A stretch of DNA of 41,977 nt from a virus. Its lineage: Duplodnaviria > Heunggongvirae > Uroviricota > Caudoviricetes. The stretch spans positions 1-41,977 of IMG/VR virus record IMGVR_UViG_2563366853_000004; one strand, given 5' to 3'. Position numbers and translations under genes: made by a program. Below are positions 7,381 to 41,977 of the stretch, piece by piece (the stretch's first letter is position 1; every line of letters starts with the position of its first letter). The notes under the pieces are model-generated. The model saw nothing but the letters and a program-made list of their open reading frames with translations, was not told the DNA's origin and searched no databases.

Positions 7381-7869
7381 TTATTTGATAAGAAGTGAAG
7401 GTTTCCCAACCTTGAGTTGAGCACCGGGAATATTTATTCCTGCTTTTAGTTGGTGCTTGATTGCCAGTTTGTCGGCTTTAATTGTCGTTTCAAACTCAAC
7501 GTATTCAGGAGGAAGGGCGCTTGAGTCGATTATTTCTACAATTTCTGACGGTTTGCGGATTGTTACCTGGTGAATACCTGCTCGAATATTTTTCTTGCCA
7601 ACCATTTCAAGCGATGACGCTATATATGATTTGATGCTGTCAATCTTATTTTGAATTACTGCGGCTCGCTCATTCAGTGACTTTGCCTCTTCCTTGAGGC
7701 GTTCGGCATAACCAGATTCATTTTTAATGACGGAAAGAAGTTGTTCTATTTTATCGGTAAATTCTCCTTCCATGCCTTCTATTGTGTCAGCAATCATCTC
7801 TGGTTCTAAATCTGAATCCATCAATTTTGCGTATTCATTGGCAATTTCATATAGTTTGCTCACTGGCAA
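7381..7869 (-). CDS. Siphovirus Gp157-like protein (RecT-associated)
   Basis: 162-aa translation resembles the Gp157 family usually found next to RecT-type recombinases; overlaps the recT 3' end. Confidence 0.55.
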   Translation of the reverse strand: MPVSKLYEIANEYAKLMDSDLEPEMIADTIEGMEGEFTDKIEQLLSVIKNESGYAERLKEEAKSLNERAAVIQNKIDSIKSYIASSLEMVGKKNIRAGIHQVTIRKPSEIVEIIDSSALPPEYVEFETTIKADKLAIKHQLKAGINIPGAQLKVGKPSLLIK

Positions 7870-8758
7870 CCTCCAGTTTCGCTTTGCATTCTATGTAAAT
7901 GGCTTGTACGTTCTGCTGCAATTTCATTCCAGATGTCAGGCGATATGCTTCTGCAAAATATCTCTTCAAATCATCCATGTTTTCAGCCTGAGCCATTTCA
8001 TCACAAAGAAGTTGTGCTTTTTCCGTTATTTCCTGCTGGCGTTTCCGTTCATCTTCGCGGATATCTTCCTCTGATTTATGCGGCATAACTGGTTCAGTCC
8101 ACACACCTTCTTCTTCGTTTAGTACGTGAATAGCACTATCAAGACGTGATGCCTTAGGCCAATACTTGCTTGCACGCTTTACGACCGTCTTTCGCGCCAT
8201 CTCATTCCAGTGATTTACCCATGGTCCTTTATCGCTGAATGCTGCCTTGCTTGTTTTCCTTACAGCCTCAATTTCAGCCAGACTCATCTCTTCCGTTAGA
8301 TAATCACCTGCTGGCGTCTTAACTGTGCAGTAAACGCCAACGATATCACCACGATCACCGAAGGCGTTGTATTTATGGGTTGGTGCTTTATCAAGCCCGT
8401 TTGACTCATAGGTATCGTTAGCATGAACAAGTTTTGCCTGACCCCATGAGATAACACCAGACTCCATTGCAATATGGAGCAATCCCATATAGCTGATATC
8501 AAGGCAAACCATGCCATCGCGCGGAACCAGATAAGCCAGTTTGCTTGCAGGGTTTAAGGTGATGCCGATCGCCGCAACATTGATGATGGCGTTCTGTGCG
8601 CTGGTTGGATTTGCCAGTGCTGTTTTAGCCAGGTAATCATTTTTCTGGAAATACTGAATTGCAAACTGGCTTTCCTTAGCCCATGTCACCGTCTGTTCAG
8701 TCAATGCTCCGCAGAATAACTGCTCCTGCTGTTTAACGAATTCAACGATATTGCTCAT
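7847..8758 (-). CDS. recT: RecT-family single-strand annealing recombinase
   Basis: 303-aa ORF; KGPWVNHWNEMARKTVVKRASKYWP resembles the conserved RecT segment NGPWVTHWEEMAKKTAIRRLFKYLP recalled from Rac RecT. Confidence 0.8.
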   Translation of the reverse strand: MSNIVEFVKQQEQLFCGALTEQTVTWAKESQFAIQYFQKNDYLAKTALANPTSAQNAIINVAAIGITLNPASKLAYLVPRDGMVCLDISYMGLLHIAMESGVISWGQAKLVHANDTYESNGLDKAPTHKYNAFGDRGDIVGVYCTVKTPAGDYLTEEMSLAEIEAVRKTSKAAFSDKGPWVNHWNEMARKTVVKRASKYWPKASRLDSAIHVLNEEEGVWTEPVMPHKSEEDIREDERKRQQEITEKAQLLCDEMAQAENMDDLKRYFAEAYRLTSGMKLQQNVQAIYIECKAKLEVASEQTI

Positions 8759-9066
8759 GCTGCTTCTCCATAAATGTGTCTGCGTTTGAATATTGCGAAG
8801 GCATATTCAGCCTTAACTCTTTCGGTTATTGCATCCCAGAACCATTCAGCGGCTTTTTCCTGATAGTTACAATCATCATCTTCCAGCCAGTCGATAGCGT
8901 CCTTAGTGTGTTCATCTGGTTTATATGAGCGAAGCATTTCGCTTATTGGGTCGCAACGTTTGCAGAGGCGATCAACTTCACTGTTGATTCGCTCGTAATC
9001 TTCATCAGTAAAACTTGCGATTATTTGCGATATTTCACGCTTATCATTCAGAGTCAGAATCATCAT
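8755..9066 (-). CDS. Hypothetical protein
   Basis: 103-aa ORF with AGGAG 4 nt upstream; stop overlaps the recT start (ATGA). Confidence 0.5.
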   Translation of the reverse strand: MMILTLNDKREISQIIASFTDEDYERINSEVDRLCKRCDPISEMLRSYKPDEHTKDAIDWLEDDDCNYQEKAAEWFWDAITERVKAEYAFAIFKRRHIYGEAA

Positions 9067-9147: not shown

Positions 9148-9300
9148 TCATTTCCTGCGATACCACGGAAGGTTGATAGCTGATTTCATCGCTTTATTTG
9201 CTTCAAGCCACATTTTTGAATCACCAATAAATCTGGCTATTACTGCTTTGTTCTGTGCAGCACGAAGCATCTGGTGATTAATGGCTATTTCATTGCGCAT
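9148..9300 (-). CDS. kil: Kil-like host-killing peptide (candidate FtsZ inhibitor)
   Basis: Hand-translated 50-aa ORF with GAGG 7 nt upstream; the IARFIGDSKMW segment resembles my recollection of lambda Kil; sits just downstream of cIII as in lambda. Confidence 0.45.
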   Translation of the reverse strand: MRNEIAINHQMLRAAQNKAVIARFIGDSKMWLEANKAMKSAINLPWYRRK

Positions 9301-9410
9301 AATAAGACCTCAACTCTTTTCCATCCGTCACGTAATTTACTGGTGATTCGTTCAAGTAAAGATTCGGAAGGGCAGCCAGCAACAGGCCACCCTGCAATGG
9401 CATATTGCAT
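9285..9410 (-). CDS. cIII: CIII-like FtsH inhibitor with shortened, divergent C-terminus
   Basis: MQYAIAGWPVAGCPSESLLERITSKLRDGWKR matches the lambda CIII N-terminus and core; GGAG upstream of the ATG at 9410; ends after 41 aa versus 54 in lambda. Confidence 0.75.
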   Translation of the reverse strand: MQYAIAGWPVAGCPSESLLERITSKLRDGWKRVEVLLCAMK

Positions 9411-9631
9411 GGTGTGCTCCTTATTTATACATAACGAAAAACGCCTCGAGTGAAGCGTTATTGGTATGCATATAAAAAGGCCCTCACACTGGAGGGCAAA
9501 GAAGATTTCCAATAATCAGAACAAGTCGGCTCCTGTTTAGTTACGAGCGACATTGCTCCGTGTATTCACTCGTTGGGATGAATACACAGTGCAGTGTTTA
9601 TTCTGTTGTTAGTGCCAAAAATAAAGGCCGA

Positions 9632-10255
9632 CTATGCGGCCTCGGAAGGAAGTCCAATCATCTTATTCAAATCTTCTACCCGTAAAGCAGGAAGTGCTGT
9701 ACTTGCTTTATCTGCTTCTTTTGGTAGCAATTCTTTGCTTTCAGGCCAAACTTCAATAAGTCGCTTAACTGTTGTGACTGAGTTCAAAGCAGCCCATACA
9801 TTTGATTCGATATCCTTTTTCTTGGCTTCAAGTTTTTGTTGCAATGCGCAGATTTCATCAAACCTTTTTGTTATTTCGTGTTCTGCGCTAAACATGCATT
9901 TATCTTTGGTCGGAGTAGGGAGCAATATATCTTCGCCGTTGCCGTCTTTCCCATATGAATGCCATCCAACCCTTCTGCCAGATACAGTCAGATAAATTGA
10001 AGTAGAACTAACATCGTATGAGTAAAATGAACATCCCATCTTTTCAAGTTCTTCACTTATAGCTACCAACTTGGATGATAACTGATCCACTTCCTCAGTT
10101 TTCTTTTTACCGCCAAACGCAATAACTCTGGCGTCAAGTGCAAGCTGGTTCTTTAACTTTGTTACTTCTTCAAGTTCAGTGAAAACCCCAGACTTAATTA
10201 AAGCGTTACGAGCGATTTCCTCTTTCATTCTCGTAGTTAAGCGGATTGATGACAT
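9632..10255 (-). CDS. Hypothetical 207-aa protein immediately downstream of N, AT-rich
   Basis: GAGG 7 nt upstream of the ATG at 10255 (MSSIRLTTRMKEEIARNAL…); no TM segments or recognisable motifs; occupies the ral/sieB position of the pL operon. Confidence 0.6.
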   Translation of the reverse strand: MSSIRLTTRMKEEIARNALIKSGVFTELEEVTKLKNQLALDARVIAFGGKKKTEEVDQLSSKLVAISEELEKMGCSFYSYDVSSTSIYLTVSGRRVGWHSYGKDGNGEDILLPTPTKDKCMFSAEHEITKRFDEICALQQKLEAKKKDIESNVWAALNSVTTVKRLIEVWPESKELLPKEADKASTALPALRVEDLNKMIGLPSEAA

Positions 10256-10266
10256 ATTAATTCCTC

Positions 10267-10593
10267 TCAAATAAGTGGTTTGCTGCCTAATTTCATTTTC
10301 TGGCGACCAACACAAGTCACGCCCATTTCACTGCGTGGCTTGCTGTACCATGTGCGCTGATTCTTGCGCTCAATACGTTGCAGGTTGCTTTCAATCTGTT
10401 CGTGGTATTCAGCCAGCACCGTAAGGTCTATCGGATTCAGTGCGCTTTCTACTCGTGATTTCGGTTTGCGATTCAGCGAGAGAATAGGGCGGTTAACTGG
10501 TTTTGCGCTTACCCCAACCAACAGGGGATTTGCTGCTTTCCATTGAGCCTGTTTCTCTGCGCGACGTTCGCGGCGGCGTGTTTGTGCATCCAT
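10267..10593 (-). CDS. N: Antitermination protein N
   Basis: MDAQTRRRERRAEKQAQWKAANPLLVGVSAKPVNRPILSLNRKPKSRVESALNPIDLTVLAEYH… is lambda N with a few C-terminal differences. Confidence 0.95.
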   Translation of the reverse strand: MDAQTRRRERRAEKQAQWKAANPLLVGVSAKPVNRPILSLNRKPKSRVESALNPIDLTVLAEYHEQIESNLQRIERKNQRTWYSKPRSEMGVTCVGRQKMKLGSKPLI

Positions 10594-10703
10594 CTGGATT
10601 CTCCTGTCAGTTAGCTTTGAGTAACGCGCCGTGATGCTTATCTCCACGGTTGCTGTCTTGCAGCTGCATTTCGCGCTACTCAAAGCCTTCTGCTTTGAAT
10701 GCT

Positions 10704-10734
10704 GCCCTTCTTCAGGGCTTAATTTTTAAGAGCG
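10704..10734 (-). promoter_or_regulatory. nutL (boxA CGCTCTTAAAAA and boxB GCCCTGAAGAAGGGC on the leftward transcript)
   Basis: Reverse complement of 10704..10734 gives lambda boxA and the boxB hairpin upstream of N. Confidence 0.85.
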
Positions 10735-10860
10735 TCACCTTCATGGTGGTCAGTGCGTCCTGCTGATGGCTAAATAGTACGATTTGTACTTTATCGAGTC
10801 AATACAAAATGTTCTAAATATAATTGGTTTTTTATAACACTTTGTATTTAATGGGTTTAT
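10735..10860 (-). promoter_or_regulatory. pL/OL region (leftward early promoter with candidate operator half-sites)
   Basis: Lies between the cI terminator and nutL; contains the inverted repeat AGTACgatttGTACT; operator sequences differ from lambda, consistent with the different repressor N-domain. Confidence 0.45.
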
Positions 10861-10863
10861 ATT

Positions 10864-10897
10864 TTGGAAAAAGAAAACCCGACGCTAAGGTCGGGTT
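10864..10897 (-). terminator. Rho-independent terminator downstream of cI
   Basis: Hairpin AACCCGAC-gctaag-GTCGGGTT followed by a U-tract on the minus strand, about 30 bp after the cI stop. Confidence 0.6.
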
Positions 10898-10927
10898 ATT
10901 GTTGTGTGTTTTAGAGTGGTGAGGCTG

Positions 10928-11586
10928 TTAACTAAATGTCTCTTCAGGCCACTGGCTGGCGATAACTTTCCCTACTACGGAACAGCTATCATTGCATGGA
11001 ATCATTGGATATTGCGGGTTTAGTGGCTGTAGGAACACCTGACCGCTATCCCTGATCAGTTTCTTGAAGGTAAACTCGTCACCACCAAGTCTGGCTATGC
11101 AGAAATCACCTGGCTCAACAGCCTGCTCAGGGTCAACGAGAATTAACATCCCGTCAGGAAAGCTTGGCTTGGATCCTGTTGGCGCGGTCATGGAATTACC
11201 TTCAACTTCAAGCCAGAACGCACAATCACTGGCTTTTTTGGTTGTGCTGACCCATCTCTCCGCATCACCTTTGGTAAAGGTTCTAAGCTCAGGCGAGAAC
11301 ATCCCGGCCTGAACATGAGAAAAAACAGGGTACTCATATTGTTTTTTAACGGGGGCAGATGAGTATTCGCCAACAGGTGAAAATGTACCGTCGTGGTTGA
11401 ATGAGACGTTATCAATACCAAGGTATTTAAACACCACACCAATCTCGTCAAGAGATGGATGACGAGATCCGCGCAACCAGTGACCAATTCCACCCTGCGT
11501 CATACCAAGCTCTTCAGCTAACTTCTCTTGAGTTATGCCGAGCTCTTTCATTCTGGATCTAGCCAGTTCATACCATTTCATTTTCA
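10928..11586 (-). CDS. cI: CI-type repressor: lambda C-terminal domain fused to a non-lambda N-terminal HTH domain
   Basis: The C-terminal ~130 aa ([38 protein letters not shown]…[15 protein letters not shown]) are near-identical to lambda CI; the N-terminal ~95 aa ([37 protein letters not shown]…) are not. Start is 11586 or 11580. Confidence 0.85.
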
Positions 11587-11698
11587 TACCCTTATTATTA
11601 CGCTCTGTACTAAAACCATCCATGCACAAGATGTATTTTTTGTTTGCATTCTAAAAGTACATATCGTATTATTGTTTCATGGTTACTATGGAGGGCAT
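11587..11698. promoter_or_regulatory. OR/pRM/pR divergent promoter-operator region
   Basis: 112-bp AT-rich interval between divergent cI and cro, containing AGTAC-type motifs (AAAGTACATATCGTATT) similar to the OL side. Confidence 0.55.
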
Positions 11699-12359: not shown

Positions 12360-12506
12360 ATGACAAAACAACTCAGTCCTTACCAGGACAAAATTCACAA
12401 ACACATACTACGTGATCGCTTCCTGTCCAGCTTCAAGCAGCCTGGTCGATTCCGGGCTGAGTTGGAAAAAGTGAAGCTGATGCAGAAGGAGAAAGGTCAT
12501 GAGTAA
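12360..12506 (+). CDS. Small hypothetical ORF between cII and the replication initiator
   Basis: Hand-translated 48-aa ORF with CAGGAG upstream; overlaps the O-like gene start; uncertain. Confidence 0.3.
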
Positions 12507-13359
12507 TCTTGCAACCGTAACACATTTAAGGCCTTCACAACGGCCTGTGGAGCGTTGTGTGGCAGAAGTTGAAGATGGTTATACCCGTCTTGCAAATGCC
12601 CTGTATGAAGAGCTTATCGGCGCTGATTTAACGAAAAATCAGAGCAAGGTTGCCCACGCCATATGCCGTAAAACATACGGCTACGGTAAAAAGATGGATC
12701 GCATCTCTGATAGTCAGTTAGCTCAAATTACCAGGCTGCCAAGACAGAAGGTAAACAAGGCCAAGAATGAGCTTATCGCGATGAAGGTTATCCTTCGCGA
12801 AGGCCAGCAAATCGGGCCTAACAAGAACATCGAGGAATGGCAAATCGAAGGATGTCACTACACTGGTGATAATGTCACTGCATTGGTGACAAAAAGTGTC
12901 ACCAAAACGGTGACAGCGCTGTCACCAAAACAGGGACACACAAAAGAAACTATTACAAAAGAAAAAAGAAATAATAAAAACACTATGTCCGAAAGTGTTC
13001 GGACGGAGTGTGAAAAATCACCTGACCGTCACGAAGAAACCGACAAGGCATTCGAGGAAATATTCTGGTGTGCAGGCATGCGAAAAGCCGGGAAGAAAAA
13101 CGCAGCTTCAGCATTCAGAACACAGTTCAGGGAATGGCGTAAAACTACAAGGGGTACGGCAAGCGAGTTTGCCACGATGCTGGCAGAAGACATCGCATGC
13201 AGGAATGGTAAGCAGTTCGGATTCGACAGGTTGTTACCATCGAGCTACCTGAACGGTCAGCGCTGGAACGACGAAAAGCCAGAAACCATTCAACCACAAT
13301 CCAAACCATCATCCGCAATCACCGTATCGAAAACTGGCTACGTGTTTTTCGACAGGTGA
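12499..13359 (+). CDS. O-like replication initiator (iteron-binding)
   Basis: 286-aa ORF at the lambda O position with the replication origin embedded in mid-gene, as in lambda O; sequence is not lambda O. Confidence 0.7.
12853..12990. repeat. Replication origin: four ~19-bp iterons plus an AT-rich tract
   Basis: TGTCACTACACTGGTGATA, ATGTCACTGCATTGGTGACA, AGTGTCACCAAAACGGTGACA, GCTGTCACCAAAACAGGGACA in tandem, then an A-rich stretch (AAACTATTACAAAAGAAAAAAGAAATAATAAAAACACT). Confidence 0.75.
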
Positions 13360-13466: not shown

Positions 13467-15347
13467 ATGACGCCAAGTGAACTTAGCGACCTGCTTTGGG
13501 CGCAGGTTGACAGGGTGGCTCCGCACCTGTTGCCAAACGGCAAGAAAGAGGGGCATGAGTGGGTTGCCGGTAACGTCAACGGTGACAAGGGAAACAGCCT
13601 TAAGGTCAACCTTAGCGGCAAGAAAAAATGGGCTGATTTCGCTGAGGGAGACGGCGGTGACATGCTTGATTTGTGGATGTCATGTCGTGGAATTAACCTG
13701 CATCAGGCTATGCAGGAAGCGAAAGCATTTCTCGGTATCAAGGATGACGATCACCATTTCGATGCCAAACGTGAGAAGAAATTCTCCAGACCTGATCGCA
13801 AGAAAATCGCCCGCTACGTTACCAGAACAGAATCCCATCTTGAGTACCTGCAATCGCGTGGCATATCGCCAGAAGTCGTAAAGCGCTACGAGGTTGTCAG
13901 CGGCAAGGTGTGGAATGGAGAGCGGGAACTGGATGCTCTGGTGATTCCGTACAAACGCGATGGTGAGTTGTTGCAGGTCAAGCGAATCAGCACTGAGCGC
14001 CCGGACGGGAAGAAAGTCATTATGGCAGAAGGTGATTGCGAACCTTGTCTGTTCGGATGGCAGGCTCTGGACGCTGGCGTGAGGGCGGTTGTACTTTGCG
14101 AAGGCGAAATTGATTGTATGAGCTATGCGCAATACGGCATCTCGGCGTTATCCGTGCCGTTTGGTGGCGGGAAAGGCGCTAAGCAGCAGTGGATTGAGTT
14201 TGAGTATCACAATCTCGACAGGTTTGAGGAAATATTCATCTCGATGGACGTTGATGATGTTGGTCGTGAAGCCGCAAGGGAAATCGCAAGCCGACTCGGT
14301 GAACATCGTTGCCGTCTTGTTACTCTGCCGTACAAAGACATCAACGAATGCCTGATGAACGGTGTTACCGAGGATGAAATCTGGCAGTACATCGGCACGG
14401 CATCCTACTTCGATCCTGAAGAACTCTACAGCGCGCGAGAGTTTTACCAGGACACTATCAACGCTTTCTACGGCAAGCAGCAGTATCTGTTTAATCCACC
14501 GTGGGAATCTCTGGCAGATAAATTCCAGTTCCGTGAGGCCGAGTTGACGCTGGTCAATGGTGTGAACGGTCACGGAAAAACGGAGGTTGTCGGGCATATG
14601 GCACTTGAGGCAATGCGTCAGGGTGTGAAGACGTGCATCGCGTCACTTGAGCTGAAGCCAGGCATTCTCCTTAAGAGACTTACCCGTCAGGCGACGTGCT
14701 GCAAGATGCCGCCAGTGCTGGAAATTGACTCTGCATTTAAATTTTATGACGAAAGACTTTGGGTGTTTGGCCTGACCGGAACGGCGAAAGCCGACAGGCT
14801 GATCGAAATATTCGACTACGCTCGCCGCCGATACGGCATCCAGTTATTCATCATCGACAGCCTGATGAAATGTGGCATAGGCGACGATGACTATAACGGG
14901 CAGAAAGCGTTTGTTGACTCGATTTGCGATTTCAAAAACAAAACAAACTCCCACGTCATTCTCGTTACTCACTCGCGAAAAGGTGACAGCGAAGAAAAAC
15001 CAACCGGGAAAATGGACGTAAAAGGCTCTGGAGCGATAACAGACCTGACAGACAACCTTTTCATCATCTGGCGTAACAAGGCTCGCGAGAGAGCGTTACA
15101 GAGAGTTCAGAGTGGTGAAAAGATGTCAGAGAAGGACGAACAGCTACTGGCATCTCCGGCATCTGTTTTGATGCTTGAAAAACAACGTAACGGCGAAGGT
15201 TGGGAAGGTGGTGTCCCGTTGTTCCTTGACGAGCAATCGCACCAGTTCCTGCAACTTGAATCAGGATCGCCATATAGCTACATCGCCAATATGCCGAAAT
15301 CGGAATATGACGAGGCGTGGCGACAGGAAAACGTGACGGAGTATTAA
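13467..15347 (+). CDS. Bifunctional DNA primase (Toprim) and DnaB-like replicative helicase
   Basis: 626-aa ORF with GAGGG SD; N-terminal acidic motifs (VVLCEGEIDCMSY…ISMDVDDVG) suggest Toprim; C-terminal Walker A-like GVNGHGKTE and Walker B-like LFIIDSLM suggest a DnaB/RecA-fold helicase. Replaces lambda P. Confidence 0.75.
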   Translation: MTPSELSDLLWAQVDRVAPHLLPNGKKEGHEWVAGNVNGDKGNSLKVNLSGKKKWADFAEGDGGDMLDLWMSCRGINLHQAMQEAKAFLGIKDDDHHFDAKREKKFSRPDRKKIARYVTRTESHLEYLQSRGISPEVVKRYEVVSGKVWNGERELDALVIPYKRDGELLQVKRISTERPDGKKVIMAEGDCEPCLFGWQALDAGVRAVVLCEGEIDCMSYAQYGISALSVPFGGGKGAKQQWIEFEYHNLDRFEEIFISMDVDDVGREAAREIASRLGEHRCRLVTLPYKDINECLMNGVTEDEIWQYIGTASYFDPEELYSAREFYQDTINAFYGKQQYLFNPPWESLADKFQFREAELTLVNGVNGHGKTEVVGHMALEAMRQGVKTCIASLELKPGILLKRLTRQATCCKMPPVLEIDSAFKFYDERLWVFGLTGTAKADRLIEIFDYARRRYGIQLFIIDSLMKCGIGDDDYNGQKAFVDSICDFKNKTNSHVILVTHSRKGDSEEKPTGKMDVKGSGAITDLTDNLFIIWRNKARERALQRVQSGEKMSEKDEQLLASPASVLMLEKQRNGEGWEGGVPLFLDEQSHQFLQLESGSPYSYIANMPKSEYDEAWRQENVTEY

Positions 15348-33153: not shown

Positions 33154-34991
33154 TGAAAGTAACTGCAAACGGTAAGACATTTACCTTCCCTGATGGTACG
33201 AGCACGGAAGATATTGGCACCGCCATTGATGAGTATTTTGCTGGTCAGGCTGTTCAGCAACAAACAGTTAATCAGGCCAATAATGCACCAACACGGGAAG
33301 AACCATCATTGATGCAACAAGCTGGCGATTGGCTCACTGGTGGTCAAAGTGCAGGGCAAATTGCAGAACAGGCTGGTCGTGGTCTGGTAAACATACCATT
33401 TGACGTATTACAGGGCGGCGCAAGTCTGATTAATGCAATCAGTCAGGGGCTTGGTGGCCCCAAGGTTTTGGATGATGTTTATCGTCCAGTAGACAGACCG
33501 ACAGACCCCTACGCTCAAGCTGGAGAAACAATTGGCGGGTATTTAGTTCCAGGAGTTGGAACGGCAGGAAGCATGGCTATTGGATCACTGGCAGAGGCCG
33601 CAAATCAGAAAGGTGATTTCGCACAAAATGCAGCTAAAAATGCCGGAGTTAACCTTGCCGCTCAGGGTGTTCTTTCCGCAGCAGCAAAGGGAATAGGGCG
33701 TGGAATAACGGCTATAAAAGGTGATATTGCGCCAGAAGTGGCAAAGAAAATTGCCACATCAGAATCGATGGGCGTGACACCAATGACATCTGATGTTATC
33801 CCGCCGAAAAATGCTTTCACTCGCGGACTTACTCAAGATGCTGAGGGGGCTTTGCTCGGGACAGGCTCAAAGCGAGCGGAGCAATATGCAACGCGTAGTA
33901 AGCTGGTAAGCAATTATTTTGACCGTTTTGGTGAGTACAACCCTGATGATGTGGTGAGATCTCTGACCACCACGTTAAGGGGACGGAAGGATGCCGCTGG
34001 CGCTGTTATCAATGACGTCACCAATAAAATGGGTAATGCCGCAGTTGATACCACAAATACCATGAATGCTCTGAATACAGCGATCGCAAGACAGGAACGG
34101 CTTGGGACTTCTGCCAATCAAAACCTGCTTACATCCTTGCGTAACCTACGTGAAGAATTAGCAACCCCTGCAACTGATTTGGATGTTACGTTTGATCTCT
34201 TGCGCCAGCACAGAACAGCATTTAGATCTAATGTTCAGGGAGATGCCATGGTCTTCCCCAACCAGGCAAAAGCAGCTACCAATATGGTAGAGAATGCAAT
34301 GTCAAAAGACCTTCGTAACGCAGTTGCCAAAAACCTCGGTGCTTCAGACGCAGCAAAATACCTTAAAGCAAATTCCGATTATGCAAACGTTTATAATAAG
34401 GTGCTTAATAAAAACATTGCTAACAAGCTCAACAAGGCAAGCAGTGAAGCCAGTCCTGAACTTATAAATACCGTTGTATTAAGCAGAAAACCATCTGACG
34501 TGAAACGAATCTGGAGCGCACTTGATGATAAAGGGAAAGATGCTATGCGTGCAGCTTACGTCAGCAAAATAGCGGAAAAGGCCGGTGACTCTCCAGCCAA
34601 GTTCATCACTGAAGTTAATAAGCTGAAATCTCAGTCAGGCGGTGAAATTTACAACACTATTTTTTCTGGAAAGCACATGAAAGAACTTGATGCTCTTCAT
34701 GAAGTTCTACAGCAAGCAGCAAGATCAGACACCGCAAATGTAGTAACTCAGACGGGGCAATCGCAAGCCAACAGGATAAGGACGATTGGCGCAACTACGA
34801 CTCTTGGCGTATCAATGGGGCTTGAGGCTGGTTTCGGTGCAATGATGCGCTTGTATGAATCCAAAGCAGCAAGGAATGCGCTCTTACGTCTGGCAAACAC
34901 TAAAGCTGGAACGCCAGCTTATGAAAGAGCGCTAAATCAGGCGGCTACTGCCGTGCGCCCGCTCTTAGTTAACGAAGCTACCCGGCAGTAG
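33150..34991 (+). CDS. Ejection protein, gp16-like
   Basis: 613-aa ORF overlapping the upstream stop; N-terminus [33 protein letters not shown] as recalled for P22 gp16. Confidence 0.7.
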
Positions 34992-36594: not shown

Positions 36595-39540
36595 ATGACA
36601 GACATTACAGCCAATGTTGTAGTGAGTATGCCTTCGCAACTCTTCACTATGGCGCGTTCTTTTAAAGCCGTAGCCAATGGCAAAATTTATATCGGTAAAA
36701 TTGACACTGACCCGGTAAATCCTGAAAACCAGATTCAGGTTTATGTAGAGAACGAAGACGGTTCTCACATTCCTGTTTCGCAACCAATAATCATTAACGC
36801 TGCTGGATATCCGGTATATAACGGACAGATTGCCAAATTCGTAACCGTGCAAGGCCATTCTATGGCTGTTTATGATGCGTATGGTACACAGCAGTTCTAT
36901 TTTCCGAATGTGCTGAAGTATGATCCTGATCAGTTACGACAGCAATTAGAAGACCCAGATGGAGCGAATAAATACCCAAAACTTCAGATAGCAAGATGGA
37001 GAGACAGTTATGATGTAAGAGGTTGGGGGGCTATTGGTGATGGTGTTCATGATGATACATCAGCTCTATCAGAATTACTTTCTGTTGCAACAGGTGGTGA
37101 AAAGATAGATGGGCGAGGGCTTACTTTTAAAGTATCAACTCTTCCAGATGTCAGTCGATTTAAAAATGCTCGTTTTTTATTTGAGAGAATACCGGGTCAG
37201 CCTCTTTTTTATGCTTCTGAAGATTTTATCCAAGGAGAGTTATTTAAAATTACAGATACACCGTGGTACAACGCCTGGACGCAGGATAAAACGTTTGTAT
37301 ATGACAATGTCATCTATGCGCCTTTTATGGCTGGAGACCGCCATGGTGTAAATAACCTCCATGTTGCATGGGTTCGCTCAGGAGATGACGGGAAGACCTG
37401 GACAACGCCGGAATGGCTTACAGATTTACATGAAAACTATCCCACAGTTAACTATCACTGCATGAGTATGGGGGTTGTCAGAAATCGCCTTTTTGCTGTA
37501 ATTGAGACGCGGACCGTGAGCGGAAATAAACTGCAGGTTGCAGAGTTGTGGGATCGCCCAATGAGTCGCAGCCTTCGCGTTTATGGTGGTATAACGAAAG
37601 CAGCAAATCAGCAAGTCGCTTATATTCGCATTACTGATCACGGATTATTTGCTGGTGATTTTGTCAACTTCTCAAACTCTGGTGTTACAGGTGTTACCGG
37701 GAATATGACGGTGACTACTGTCATTGATAAAAATACTTTTACAGTTACGACGCAAAATACCCAGGATGTGGATCAGAATAACGAGGGTAGATACTGGAGT
37801 TTTGGTACATCATTTCACTCGTCACCATGGAGAAAAACCAGTCTTGGAACTATTCCTTCTTTTGTTGACGGAAGCACTCCTGTTACTGAGATTCACAGTT
37901 TTGCGACGATTAGCGATAACAGTTTTGCTGTTGGCTACCATAATGGTGATATTGGTCCACGCGAGCTTGGGATACTCTATTTCTCTGATGCTTTCGGTTC
38001 TCCTGGTAGCTTTGTTCGCAGACGCATACCTGTAGAATATGAGGCGAATGCATCTGAGCCATGTGTAAAATATTATGATGGCATTCTGTATCTGACGACC
38101 AGGGGGACATTAAGTACTCAACCCGGTAGTTCATTGCACAGAAGCTCTGATTTAGGTACATCATGGAATTCTCTTCGCTTCCCAAATAATGTTCATCACT
38201 CAAACCTTCCTTTTGCCAAAGTTGGCGATGAGCTGATTATTTTTGGCAGTGAGCGCGCATTTGGTGAGTGGGAAGGAGGAGAACCTGATAACCGTTATGC
38301 AGGAAATTATCCAAGAACATTTATGACCAGAGTTAACGTCAATGAGTGGAGTCTGGATAATGTAGAGTGGGTTAATGTTACTGATCAGATTTATCAGGGC
38401 GGAATAGTTAACTCTGCGGTTGGTGTTGGTTCAGTTTGTATCAAAGACAACTGGCTGTACTACATTTTCGGTGGGGAAGACTTTCTAAACCCATGGAGCA
38501 TAGGGGATAACAACAGAAAATATCCTTATGTTCACGATGGTCACCCGGCTGATTTGTATTGTTTCAGGGTGAAAATTAAACAGGAAGAATTTGTTTCAAG
38601 GGATTTTGTCTACGGAGCCACTCCTAACAGAACGCTTCCTACTTTTATGTCGACGTCAGGCGTGAGGACGGTTCCTGTACCCGTTGATTTCACAGATGAT
38701 GTTGCCGTCCAGTCACTGACTGTCCATGCAGGTACATCAGGACAAGTTCGCGCGGAAGTCAAACTTGAGGGTAATTACGCCATTATTGCGAAGAAAGTAC
38801 CGTCTGATGATGTTACCGCTCAGAGATTAATCGTTAGCGGAGGTGAAACAACGTCTTCAGCAGATGGTGCAATGATAACGTTGCATGGTTCCGGAAGCAG
38901 TACTCCACGTCGCGCGGTATATAACGCACTCGAACATCTTTTTGAGAACGGAGATGTTAAACCTTATCTTGATAATGTAAATGCTCTTGGTGGTCCGGGA
39001 AACAGGTTCTCGACAGTTTATCTTGGCTCCAATCCTGTGGTTACCAGTGACGGAACATTAAAGACAGAGCCGGTCTCTCCTGACGAAGCATTGCTGGATG
39101 CCTGGGGTGACGTCAGGTATATCGCTTATAAATGGCTGAACGCTGTCGCTATAAAGGGGGAAGAAGGGGCGAGGATACATCATGGTGTAATCGCGCAGCA
39201 ACTTCGTGATGTTCTTATTTCTCACGGACTCATGGAAGAAGAAAGCACAACATGCCGCTATGCCTTTCTTTGCTATGACGATTATCCCGCAGTATATGAT
39301 GACGTCATTACTGGCCAAAGGGAAATGCCGCTGACTGATAATGACGGGAGCATCATTGTTGATGAGGATGATAATCCAGTGATGGTAATGGAAGACATCA
39401 TTGAGCGCGTTGAAATAACGCCAGCAGGATCTAGATGGGGGGTCAGACCTGATCTCTTATTCTATATCGAGGCGGCATGGCAGCGCAGAGAAATAGAAAG
39501 AATAAAAGCTAGGTTAGACTTAATAGAAGGGAAGCACTAA
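36595..39540 (+). CDS. Tailspike: P22-type N-terminal head-binding domain, endosialidase-like catalytic region, C-terminal intramolecular chaperone domain
   Basis: N-terminus [58 protein letters not shown] matches the conserved P22 tailspike N-domain; the central region is unlike P22 gp9 and its endosialidase assignment is from memory of CUS-3/K1F; the last ~160 aa resemble the self-cleaving chaperone domain with a candidate cleavage motif VVTSDGTLK. Confidence 0.8.
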
Positions 39541-40261: not shown

Positions 40262-40738
40262 TTAACTAAACATCGCAGTAATCGAGGCACTCGCCAGAGA
40301 GTGAAAATGAACGTTAAACCCGACCATCGCGCCGCTGGCACCTTCATCGACATCAATACGTTCTACATCCAGCGCGTGAACGGTAAAAATGTAGCGATGG
40401 GTTTCGCCTTTCGGCGGCGCTGCGCCATCGTACCCGGTTTTACCAAAGTCGGTACGCGTCTGCAAAACGCCGTCTGGCATAGCTACCAGACCAGAGCCAA
40501 ACCCTTGCGGTAATACGCGGGTATCAGCGGGTAAATTAACAACTACCCAGTGCCACCAGCCGGAGCCGGTTGGCGCATCCGGGTCATAGCAGGTGACAAC
40601 AAAACTTTTCGTTCCCGCAGGAACATCATCCCACGCCAGATGCGGTGAAATATTATCGCCATCGTAACCCATGCCGTTAAAGACATGACGATGCGGCAGC
40701 TTATCGCCATCGCGCAGATCGTTACTGATGAGTTTCAT
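40262..40738 (-). CDS. ybhB: YbhB (PEBP/RKIP-family protein), host gene flanking lambda attB
   Basis: 158-aa translation with a PEBP-like signature (…CYDPDAPTGSGWWHWVVVNLPA…); recalled as the gene to the right of attB. Confidence 0.85.
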   Translation of the reverse strand: MKLISNDLRDGDKLPHRHVFNGMGYDGDNISPHLAWDDVPAGTKSFVVTCYDPDAPTGSGWWHWVVVNLPADTRVLPQGFGSGLVAMPDGVLQTRTDFGKTGYDGAAPPKGETHRYIFTVHALDVERIDVDEGASGAMVGFNVHFHSLASASITAMFS

Positions 40739-40846: not shown

Positions 40847-41977
40847 ATGAAACGCGCATATAAATACCGGTTTTACCCGACAACTGAGCAGGCTGAGCTT
40901 TTAGCTCAGACGTTTGGCTGTGTGCGCTTCGTCTACAATTCCATCCTTCGTTGGCGTACCGATGCGTACTACGAGCGAAAAGAAAAGATCGGTTATCTAC
41001 AGGCCAACGCTCGCCTTACGGCGCTCAAAAAAGAGCCTGAATACATATGGCTGAATGATGTTTCCTGCGTTCCCCTCCAGCAGTCGTTGCGCCACCAACA
41101 AGCCGCCTTTGCTAACTTCTTTGCCGGACGAGCTGCATATCCGGCTTTCAAAAGCAAACGGCACAAACAGGTGGCTGAGTTCACTGCCAGCGCGTTTAAA
41201 CACCGTGACGGCGAGTTGTATATAGCAAAGAGCAAGTCGCCGCTGGATGTTCGCTGGAGTCGAGAATTACCATCTGCGCCGTCAACCGTTACCATTTCCA
41301 GAGATAGCGCTGGCAGGTACTTTGTTTCCTGCCTGTGTGAGTTTGAACCTGTATCAATGCCTGTTACCGCTAAAACGGTCGGCATTGATGTGGGCTTAAA
41401 AGATTTATTCGTCACCGATACCGGATTCAAAACCGACAATCCCCGCCACACCGCTAAATATGCGAAGCGATTAACGCTGCTACAGCGACGTTTAAGCAGG
41501 AAGCAAAAAGGCTCAAGAAACCGAATTAAAGCCCGCTTAAAGGTCGCCCGACTCCACGCGAAAATCGCCGATTGCCGGATGGACAATCTGCACAAGTTGT
41601 CCCGCAAACTGATTAACGAAAACCAAGTTGTTTGCGTCGAATCCCTCAAGGTGAAAAACATGATCCGCAACCCGAAGCTGTCTAAAGCAATAGCTGACGC
41701 AGGCTGGAGCGAACTTGTTCGCCAGCTCCAGTACAAAGGCAAATGGGCCGGGCGGTCAGTGGTCGCCATTGACCAGTATTTACCGTCCTCAAAATGCTGT
41801 AGTTGCTGCGGTTTCACCATGCAAAAAATGCCTCTTAATGTTCGTAAATGGCACTGCCCTGAATGCGGCGCAGACCATGATCGCGACATTAACGCGGCAC
41901 GTAATATTAAAGCTGCCGGGCTGGCAGTGTTAGCCCACGGAGAGCCTGTAAACCCTGAATCGCAGCACGCGGCTTAG
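40847..41977 (+). CDS. tnpB: TnpB (IS200/IS605-family OrfB; RuvC-like RNA-guided endonuclease)
   Basis: 376-aa ORF with N-terminal MKRAYKYRFYPT, RuvC-I-like GIDVGLKD, C-terminal zinc finger CCSCC…CPECG and RuvC-III-like DHDRDINAARNI; no tnpA nearby. Confidence 0.85.
   Translation: MKRAYKYRFYPTTEQAELLAQTFGCVRFVYNSILRWRTDAYYERKEKIGYLQANARLTALKKEPEYIWLNDVSCVPLQQSLRHQQAAFANFFAGRAAYPAFKSKRHKQVAEFTASAFKHRDGELYIAKSKSPLDVRWSRELPSAPSTVTISRDSAGRYFVSCLCEFEPVSMPVTAKTVGIDVGLKDLFVTDTGFKTDNPRHTAKYAKRLTLLQRRLSRKQKGSRNRIKARLKVARLHAKIADCRMDNLHKLSRKLINENQVVCVESLKVKNMIRNPKLSKAIADAGWSELVRQLQYKGKWAGRSVVAIDQYLPSSKCCSCCGFTMQKMPLNVRKWHCPECGADHDRDINAARNIKAAGLAVLAHGEPVNPESQHAA

Follow-up and report, generated by a model that had tools for sequence, protein, structure and literature searches.

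Closest Described Systems

The subject of this analysis is a gene for a 207-residue protein that is found directly downstream of the antiterminator gene N in the pL operon of a prophage, carried by IMG/VR virus record IMGVR_UViG_2563366853_000004 (positions 1 to 41,977; this whole stretch of 41,977 nucleotides is termed the window). Its product is a member of the Nmad5 family (Pfam PF18757, "Nucleotide modification associated domain 5") and is tentatively read here as a dispensable, non-catalytic early protein that would bind a partner in the replication, recombination or protection of phage DNA, an accessory role. The closest relatives are copies of the same gene, 97–100% identical: gp33 of HK542 (YP_007151768, HK542c102), HK24401 of HK244, the ortholog in mEp235, and the Nmad5 proteins of RefSeq. 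These copies occupy the same site after N and are followed by the same hairpin and boundary; the neighboring modules differ, with Erf and Abc2 in HK542 in place of the RecT and Gp157 found here. The HK542 record EF120458 annotates the same layout, namely pL, oL1–3, the boxA and boxB elements of nutL, N, and the Nmad5 open reading frame (ORF), and marks a mosaic boundary, "boundary sequence 4", 40 nt beyond the stop codon of that ORF. At the DNA level, an identity of 97–99% extends to HK542, HK244, mEp235, the PhiR12 series and many Stx1a-converting phages, the records of which label the gene "hypothetical protein" or leave it unannotated; for HK542 gp33, HK244 and mEp235 the value is 98%. Literature on HK542 or the phages of enterohemorrhagic Escherichia coli does not address it.

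The Nmad5 family was reportedly defined computationally by Iyer et al. in 2013 (NAR 41:7635) and is said to have taken its name from neighbors in thymidine hypermodification, aGPT-Pplase and the 5-hmdU kinase. In M6-like and SN1 phages of Pseudomonas, Nmad5 is located in a thymidine-hypermodification cassette beside aGPT-Pplase (PMC9476957). The Nmad5 proteins of the Pseudomonas phages M6, SN1 and PAE1 (Yuavirus) belong to the same family as the protein described here, are about 186 aa in length, and carry the same WPE...LN..IGLP signature (PMC9476957); only their C-terminal ~87 residues align by tblastn. The Yuavirus-type cassette holds aGPT-Pplase, a nucleotide kinase, a hydroxymethylase/thymidylate synthase (TS)-like enzyme and a DNA polymerase, none of which is carried by this prophage.

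The sole family member with experimental data is that of the Dhillonvirus phages PhiSMS22 and PhiSMA8 (CDS6) (PMC11846954). It is 31% identical to the protein described here over the C-terminal 100 residues and differs in its length (334 aa, with an N-terminal extension) and in its setting, alone on the opposite strand inside the head-morphogenesis module of a virulent siphovirus. Substitution K296E (or K216E) in this nmad5 confers escape from the Tmn defense and deletion does not; the gene can be deleted, its cloning failed, apparently because of toxicity, and the wild-type protein gives PhiSMS22 no protection from Tmn (PMC11846954).

Lambda provides two further points of comparison. Ral is, like the product of the gene described here, an early accessory of the pL operon, and the two genes are followed by homologous sequence; Ral is unlike it in size (66 aa) and in sequence, the Pfam search with the Nmad5 protein returning Nmad5 only. 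The sieB gene lies within the lambda segment that the Nmad5 gene replaces. SieB resides in the membrane and is made in the lysogen, in contrast to the product described here, which is predicted to be soluble and dependent on pL. In the lambda record sieB is on the strand opposite to N, whereas the gene in this prophage is co-oriented with N.

Family Membership and Reality of the Gene

The match to PF18757 is full-length (residues 4–203 against model positions 1–206, E = 1.2e-71, 241.5 bits against a cut-off of 27), and the PHROGs profile phrog_1965, a family of unknown function, is matched with E = 5.9e-84; NCBIfam gave no match for the protein. All elements of the Nmad5 signature are present: RLT...NA..K.G and R..A.GG in the N-terminal part, and T.K.L..WPE..ELLP-(18 aa)-LN..IGLP in the C-terminal part. 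Identical proteins of E. coli prophages bear the RefSeq name "Nmad5 family putative nucleotide modification protein", and a near-identical gene is found in 211 of 5,426 complete E. coli genomes. A preliminary description of this DNA had called the gene unrecognized and had seen no recognizable motif in its product. Neither statement is confirmed, as Pfam, PHROGs and RefSeq all know the family. The word "uncharacterized" is right where "unrecognized" is wrong: the preliminary description would have been refuted by a known family with an established function, and the family matched is a known one whose function is not established. The gene is already catalogued, being named in RefSeq, and is neither novel as an entity nor new in kind.

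Nmad5 members are found in phages of enterics, Vibrio, Pseudomonas, Bordetella and alphaproteobacteria, and also in virulent phages; their isoelectric points (pI) have a median of 7.7 and a range of 5.3–9.6. The architecture is single-domain: nearly all of the best 150 representatives are 190–220 aa long, and the precomputed domain is PF18757 alone for the listed matches. No domain fusions were found with either the full-length or the C-terminal-half profile, both of which returned PF18757-alone proteins only. ORFs of 88–107 aa that correspond to the conserved C-terminal half alone are seen in Citrobacter, Raoultella and Photorhabdus (P0275, P0277, P0280, P0282, P0287, P0290), some of them on multiple contigs; these may represent remnants of truncation or a C-terminal module that stands alone. 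A profile scan of genome contigs gave four loci only. The defense-system profiles of PADLOC-DB, which cover defense proteins and not anti-defense proteins, gave no match at E ≤ 1. Two candidates with related names or hosts were set aside, the "NMAD" domain of DefensePredictor being Nmad2 (PF18753), a different family, and Ksap1, the Avs2 trigger of Dhillonvirus, being an unrelated 74-aa protein.

The ORF (624 nt including the stop codon) is, with near certainty, a real gene and not a chance ORF, because the ratio of nonsynonymous to synonymous polymorphism (pN/pS) is 0.30 in its frame among 60 distinct alleles of related prophages and because an exhaustive profile search recovers 2,297 family clusters at 50% identity; reality and family membership are both directly observed. 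The two shifted frames of the sense strand have pN/pS values of 1.1–1.4. Purifying selection is strongest in the C-terminal region (pN/pS 0.17) and at the N terminus (0.19), and diversifying selection is not seen in any region of the gene when pN/pS is calculated by region for related alleles. A longer reading with a TTG start at 10315 would overlap N and is unsupported because the homologs all begin at MSSIRLT. An antisense ORF at 9594..9995, annotated as HK542c101 in EF120458, is a shadow ORF that is not maintained as an open frame in relatives of 47–60% identity; its pN/pS resembles that of the gene only because the two frames share the register of their codon positions.

The ATG is located at 10255, offset by 12 nt from the N stop with 11 bases between, and the GC content of the gene is 40.1% (34% at third codon positions); that of the window as a whole is 47.2% and that of N is 50.2%. 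The protein has a pI of 6.2 and a net charge of −1, and it contains no transmembrane (TM) segment, the maximum 19-residue Kyte-Doolittle mean being 0.61. In its basic observations, an AT-rich ORF of about 40% GC beginning 12 bp after the N stop behind a good Shine-Dalgarno sequence (Table 1) and encoding a protein free of TM segments, the preliminary description was accurate.

Location and Mosaic Structure

The boundaries of the segment are defined by comparison with lambda. Homology to lambda DNA runs through N to window position 10337 (lambda 35104), breaks there, and resumes at 9635 (lambda 34087), where the ral coding sequence ends. Between these points, the last ~23 codons of N and the gene (701 bp) stand in place of the 3′ end of lambda N, sieB, orf28 and ral (1,016 bp), and these DNA breakpoints confirm the ral/sieB slot to which the gene had been assigned on position. 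Further along the operon, window positions 9470/9469 join lambda 33923 to 33522, and ea10 is missing. Within N, it is the 3′ end (10267–10337; …KPRSEMGVTCVGRQKMKLGSKPLI) that diverges from lambda N. N alleles that are otherwise different share this same C-terminal end when they precede the gene, as they do in 56 of the 82 lambdoid loci; as the tail is common to different alleles, a mosaic joint must fall within N itself, whose C-terminal tail moves with the downstream module.

In these 56 loci an N-type gene is directly upstream, with a gap of 11 nt in 32 and of 61 nt in 16. A lambda-type ral, detected by tblastn with lambda Ral, is directly upstream in 10 of the 82 with a 36-nt gap, ea10 is directly downstream in 13 of the 82, and one locus reads ral – Nmad5 – ea10. 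The terminator-like hairpin at its stop codon accompanies the gene in at least 52 of the 82. The gene is an autonomous single-gene mosaic module in the hypervariable N–cIII segment. It is neither an allele of ral nor its positional alternative, because ral lies directly upstream of it, in tandem, in ten related prophages. A role as a general substitute for the RecBCD inhibitors Gam and Abc2 is weakened by the co-occurrence of Abc2 (44 loci) or Gam (five loci) with the gene in 49 of 59 lambdoid loci; the prophage described here carries neither.

In Stx2a-converting phages, an element of the IS3 family splits the Nmad5 gene at about codon 33. In Stx2_716 (LC616058.1; L174:1238-3025), the insertion carries transposase ORFs of 108 and 296 aa, and a C-terminal ORF of 152 aa remains, with ea10 behind it; the same split gene is present in 47 other Stx2a phage records. 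The insertion therefore inactivates the gene in a whole lineage of inducible toxin phages. Because of this split, and because the Dhillonvirus homolog can be deleted (PMC11846954), the gene is dispensable and not essential.

Expression from pL

The region from pL through the N leader is 98.9% identical to lambda. The hairpin that overlaps the stop codon of the gene has a predicted RNA folding energy of −13.2 kcal/mol (z = −1.9) and is the first terminator-like signal after pL; the region of the two further hairpins is homologous to lambda 33923–34087 and 33371–33522. In a consensus scan, the stretch from pL to the gene showed no promoter-like site, and the 11 nt that separate the gene from N are too few for a promoter. 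Because no terminator-like signal is present between pL and the stop codon of the gene, it is probably co-transcribed from pL with N before antitermination. The product would probably be made immediately upon induction or infection, ahead of N-dependent antitermination, and the gene is probably silent in the lysogen. Immediate-early expression does not follow for those prophages in which the gene lies behind ral. The earlier view of an early accessory gene of the pL operon holds by operon layout, the timing itself being predicted from that layout.

This arrangement bears on a superinfection-exclusion or prophage-defense function, in which the protein would act in the lysogen as an analog of SieB. 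The gene does replace a lambda segment that contains sieB, and exclusion had been suggested at the outset. The suggestion is very improbable: the protein has no TM segment, the gene has the orientation of the CI-repressed pL, depends on it, and has no promoter-like site of its own upstream within N, PADLOC profiles do not match, and family members are found in virulent phages.

Protein Model and C-Terminal Motif

AlphaFold2 models were obtained from alignments of 22 sequences (predicted local distance difference test, pLDDT, 85.1; predicted template modeling score, pTM, 0.70) and 67 sequences (pLDDT 88.9; pTM 0.76). The protein is modeled as three N-terminal helices (residues 8–22, 24–47 and 50–72), a small β-sheet at about residues 83–122, a long helix (127–158) and two short helices within residues 163–176. 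The long helices 24–47, 50–72 and 127–158 fit the coiled-coil-like stretches noted earlier. The tail is modeled with low pLDDT, 44 for residues 183–191 and ~60 for residues 192–207, and remains low (44–65) in two independent models. Structure searches found no solved structural relative of the model, and the matches in BFVD are only to other uncharacterized Nmad5 proteins. Among 50–67 diverse members, the residues that are invariant or nearly so are mainly Gly, Pro, Trp, Leu and Ala, together with R43, E172, E175 and N197; no catalytic-looking constellation of His, Asp, Cys, Ser or Lys is conserved in these members.

The most conserved part of the protein is its C-terminal region (Table 1), which has the motif T.KRL..WPE..ELLP, an 18-residue spacer, and LPA..V.(D/E)LN.(L/M)IGLP. 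Among 235 members, the spacer is exactly 18 residues in 176, and the end of the motif reads L-P-A-[LVI]-x-[VT]-x-[DE]-L-N-x-[LM]-I-G-L-P, with L at 99%, N at 100%, I at 87%, G at 98%, L at 94% and P at 96% of the last LN..IGLP positions, followed by 2–8 residues. A motif that is nearly invariant, has fixed spacing and is left unplaced in the monomer model suggests an element that folds against a partner, which may be another subunit or another protein. The residue at which the PhiSMS22 protein is altered in Tmn escape, K296, aligns with R165, a conserved basic residue just before WPE. The sequence N-x-(L/M)-I-G-L loosely resembles QLxLGL, a type of hexapeptide that binds the β-clamp; the resemblance serves as a lead only.

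Neighborhood of Nmad5 Genes and the Nucleotide-Modification Name

Taken at face value, the database name would place the protein in a pathway that modifies DNA or nucleotides, working with host enzymes or with an unrecognized phage partner. Pfam scans of the ORFs in the window identify an integrase, DUF551, Ead/Ea22, DUF5405, Gp157, RecT, CII, O, a primase-helicase, NinB, Rha/ANT, YbcO, RusA, Q, a holin, a terminase and an endosialidase tailspike; nowhere in the 42 kb do these scans find an aGPT-Pplase, a 5-hmdU kinase, a hydroxymethylase or a methyltransferase. Hypermodified bases are not known from lambdoid coliphages.

The neighbors of Nmad5 genes elsewhere were counted in a census of 79 diverse viral loci and others, de-replicated to 33 clusters at 70% identity, with 32 loci counted and 105 same-strand neighbors of at least 80 aa scanned within three genes. 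The neighbors include PD-(D/E)XK nucleases (10: DUF2800 4, PDDEXK_1 5, DUF3799 1), DNA_pol_A (7), Enc34-type single-stranded DNA-binding proteins (4), Rv2179c-like 3′–5′ exonucleases (2), Sak4/AAA_24 (2), Thy1 (2), dUTPase (1) and several helicases. The 5-hmdU DNA kinase HMUDK_hel, a hallmark modification enzyme, and MT-A70 are each found once. Annotated loci show the same company: TS – Nmad5 – Cas4-like exonuclease – ... – Sak4 in an N4-like Klebsiella phage, primase – helicase – Nmad5 – DUF3799 – AAA_24 in another locus, and Nmad5 adjoining a 3′–5′ exonuclease near DNA polymerase A. In Vibrio phage Athena1, Nmad5 is directly 5′ of replication protein O, and an early operon of a temperate phage with a single-stranded DNA-binding protein (SSB) also carries it. 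Nmad5 is most commonly at home in the replication/recombination module; modification cassettes, which themselves lie inside replication modules, make up a minority of its settings.

For the name speak the membership of the protein in PF18757, a family named from its modification-gene neighborhood, the cassettes of M6-like and SN1 phages (PMC9476957) together with the context in PAE1, and the single HMUDK_hel and MT-A70 loci among the 32. Most family loci are without such enzymes, residues of catalytic type are not conserved, and no demonstration of a biochemical role in nucleotide modification was found for any member, the literature giving neighborhood-based or genetic data. A part in modification is improbable here, and the "nucleotide modification" label probably misdescribes the protein of this prophage as well as most family members.

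Proposed Function

In the reading that is tentatively preferred, this standalone Nmad5 protein, a helical bundle with a small β-sheet, would be a non-catalytic binding protein. It is read as non-catalytic because no set of catalytic residues is conserved and no domain fusions are found. A partner-binding tail is proposed because the motif is nearly invariant and under the strongest purifying selection, yet is modeled with low pLDDT. The C-terminal element, WPE..ELLP–18 residues–LPA..V..LN..IGLP, for which flexibility is predicted in the monomer, would attach to a conserved partner, whether a second subunit of the same protein or another protein, involved in DNA replication, recombination or repair. 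Docking would assist or protect phage DNA metabolism; bases would not be modified by the protein, which in this phage would act without any DNA-modification enzyme.

Several points weigh against this proposal. No direct functional evidence and no named partner were found for any Nmad5 member. The gene is dispensable in at least two groups of phages, the Stx2a phages and Dhillonvirus (PMC11846954), and the Dhillonvirus copy is an exception in its setting, by itself on the opposite strand within the head module. The lambdoid site is among the accessory genes ral, ea10 and sieB, a pattern no less typical of host-takeover or counter-defense genes than of replication factors. Gene neighborhood is the same type of evidence that lies behind the possibly misleading family name; many of the census neighbors are unannotated, and the ORF caller was crude. 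Finally, model limits rather than real flexibility may account for the low pLDDT of the tail.

The lambdoid site lends itself to a counter-defense function, in which an anti-restriction or anti-abortive-infection protein expressed from pL would neutralize, or avoid triggering, a host immune protein. The gene is in the exact sieB–ral slot of a hypervariable accessory segment, and its position 5′ of the first predicted terminator would place its product among the first proteins made. It is dispensable, as shown by the insertion and by the Dhillonvirus deletion (PMC11846954), and the product is small, single-domain, phage-restricted and of unsolved fold. That a point mutation in the motif of the homolog and not its deletion escapes Tmn suggests active interference by the mutant protein (PMC11846954); the wild-type protein, however, is no shield for PhiSMS22 against the same system (PMC11846954). 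The family is also very large and strongly conserved across diverse phage hosts, with purifying selection throughout, unlike most inhibitors of variable immune proteins, and its non-lambdoid copies are in replication modules rather than in early host-takeover clusters. The tandem with ral and the co-occurrence with Abc2 or Gam argue that it is no analog of those proteins. A DNA mimic of the Ocr or ArdA type was rejected on the pI, the net charge and the absence of a fold match; the protein is not acidic in that manner. A plasmid leading-region anti-defense gene was likewise rejected, the gene being absent from conjugative plasmids and present on just 6 of 72,556 plasmids, none of them mobilizable and five of them the size of a phage. 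A counter-defense function is possible though doubtful. Of the anti-defense or exclusion leaning of the preliminary description, the accessory status and the position stand, and no result points specifically to restriction alleviation or anti-defense.

A host-takeover or toxic factor with a logic similar to that of Kil would inhibit a host component of replication, repair or division and have no direct role on phage DNA. The Dhillonvirus homolog could not be cloned in E. coli, apparently owing to toxicity (PMC11846954), expression in this prophage is tied tightly to the CI-repressed pL, and a conserved C-terminal peptide in a flexible tail is a property of many short docking motifs. The toxicity is that of a 334-aa homolog only 31% identical over the C-terminal half. 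Such a factor is unlikely; it overlaps the partner-binding reading, and sequence analysis cannot separate the two.

Other Features of the Prophage

The features of the operon and of the remaining window are collected in Table 1. Next to the gene in the operon, the C terminus of the cIII homolog (…WKRVEVLLCAMK) differs from that of the 54-aa cIII of lambda, and a kil-like ORF overlaps the end of the cIII homolog. On the other side of pL, rexA and rexB are absent between cI and pL, where ~130 bp are found; at the same site HK542 has two unrelated hypothetical genes.

The recombination module comprises RecT, Sipho_Gp157 and an unannotated 103-aa ORF. The pL operon contains no recognizable exonuclease partner and neither Gam nor Abc2, an arrangement shared by 10 of 59 related prophages. 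Behind the lambda O-like initiator, a 626-aa Toprim/DnaB-like primase-helicase fusion takes the place of lambda P.

The tailspike is a fusion of a P22-type head-binding domain to a complete endosialidase, with End_N_terminal, β-propeller, β-barrel, tail-spike and S74 chaperone domains. By its sequence, the element is a P22-like podovirus prophage specific for the K1 (polysialic acid) capsule. The integrase is of lambda type with an arm-binding domain, and the prophage is inserted between a pectinesterase-like (ybhC-like) gene and a PEBP-family (ybhB-like) gene, a pair that flanks the lambda attB region. An IS605-family OrfB/TnpB gene with a Cas12f-like TNB domain is located at the right end.

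Table 1. Features of the pL operon and of other parts of the prophage, in window coordinates
Feature	Position	Strand	Remarks
pL-like promoter, TTGACT-17-TACTAT	10774..10802	-	Consensus scan; drives the operon
nutL boxB	10703..10719	-	Exact match to lambda misc_binding feature "Nutl"
N antiterminator, 108 aa, 90.7% identical to lambda N	10267..10593	-	TGA stop 10269..10267
Shine-Dalgarno sequence GAGGA	10262..10266	-	6 nt 5′ of ATG, read from sequence
Nmad5-family gene, 207 aa (PF18757, phrog_1965)	9632..10255	-	Pfam and PHROGs profiles
Most conserved part of Nmad5, residues 161–207	9632..9775	-	Alignments of 22, 50 and 67 members
Intrinsic-terminator-like hairpin, GAGGCCG-CATAGT-CGGCCTT + T-run	9615..9643	-	Overlaps the stop codon of the Nmad5 gene
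Two further terminator-like hairpins	9440..9497	-	Scan; between the Nmad5 gene and cIII
cIII homolog, 41 aa, MQYAIAGWPVAG...	9285..9410	-	Next gene of the operon
kil-like ORF	9148..9300		
Recombination module	7381–9066		
RecT	7847..8758		
Sipho_Gp157	7381..7869		
Interval between cI and pL	10830–10930		
Bidirectional terminator-like hairpin	10876..10897		Between cI and pL
cI	10928..11629		
Lambda O-like initiator	12499..13359		
Primase-helicase fusion	13467–15347		
Tailspike	36595–39540		
Integration-region genes	1–1284, 1419–2489, 40262–40738, 40847–41977		

Implications

A wider extension of the partner-binding reading is conceivable, though it is a rather unlikely one. Nmad5 may be a misnamed and widespread early protein (at least 2,000 clusters) whose flexible C-terminal peptide would dock on a conserved host replication or repair hub, for example the β sliding clamp, to whose Pol IV-type ligand QLxLGL the peptide bears a loose resemblance, or SSB, and would redirect or shield DNA transactions, the same interface being the one altered by the Tmn-escape mutation. 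One experimental handle is at hand, since the Tmn-escape substitution maps to R165 of the protein described here and provides a ready-made point mutant, R165E. The family is large and strongly conserved, and a near-identical copy in the easily handled coliphages HK542 and mEp235 makes it a tractable model. If the partner of the protein does prove to be a replication or repair hub of the host, or else an immune sensor, this would explain why the gene recurs in the replication modules of many phages.

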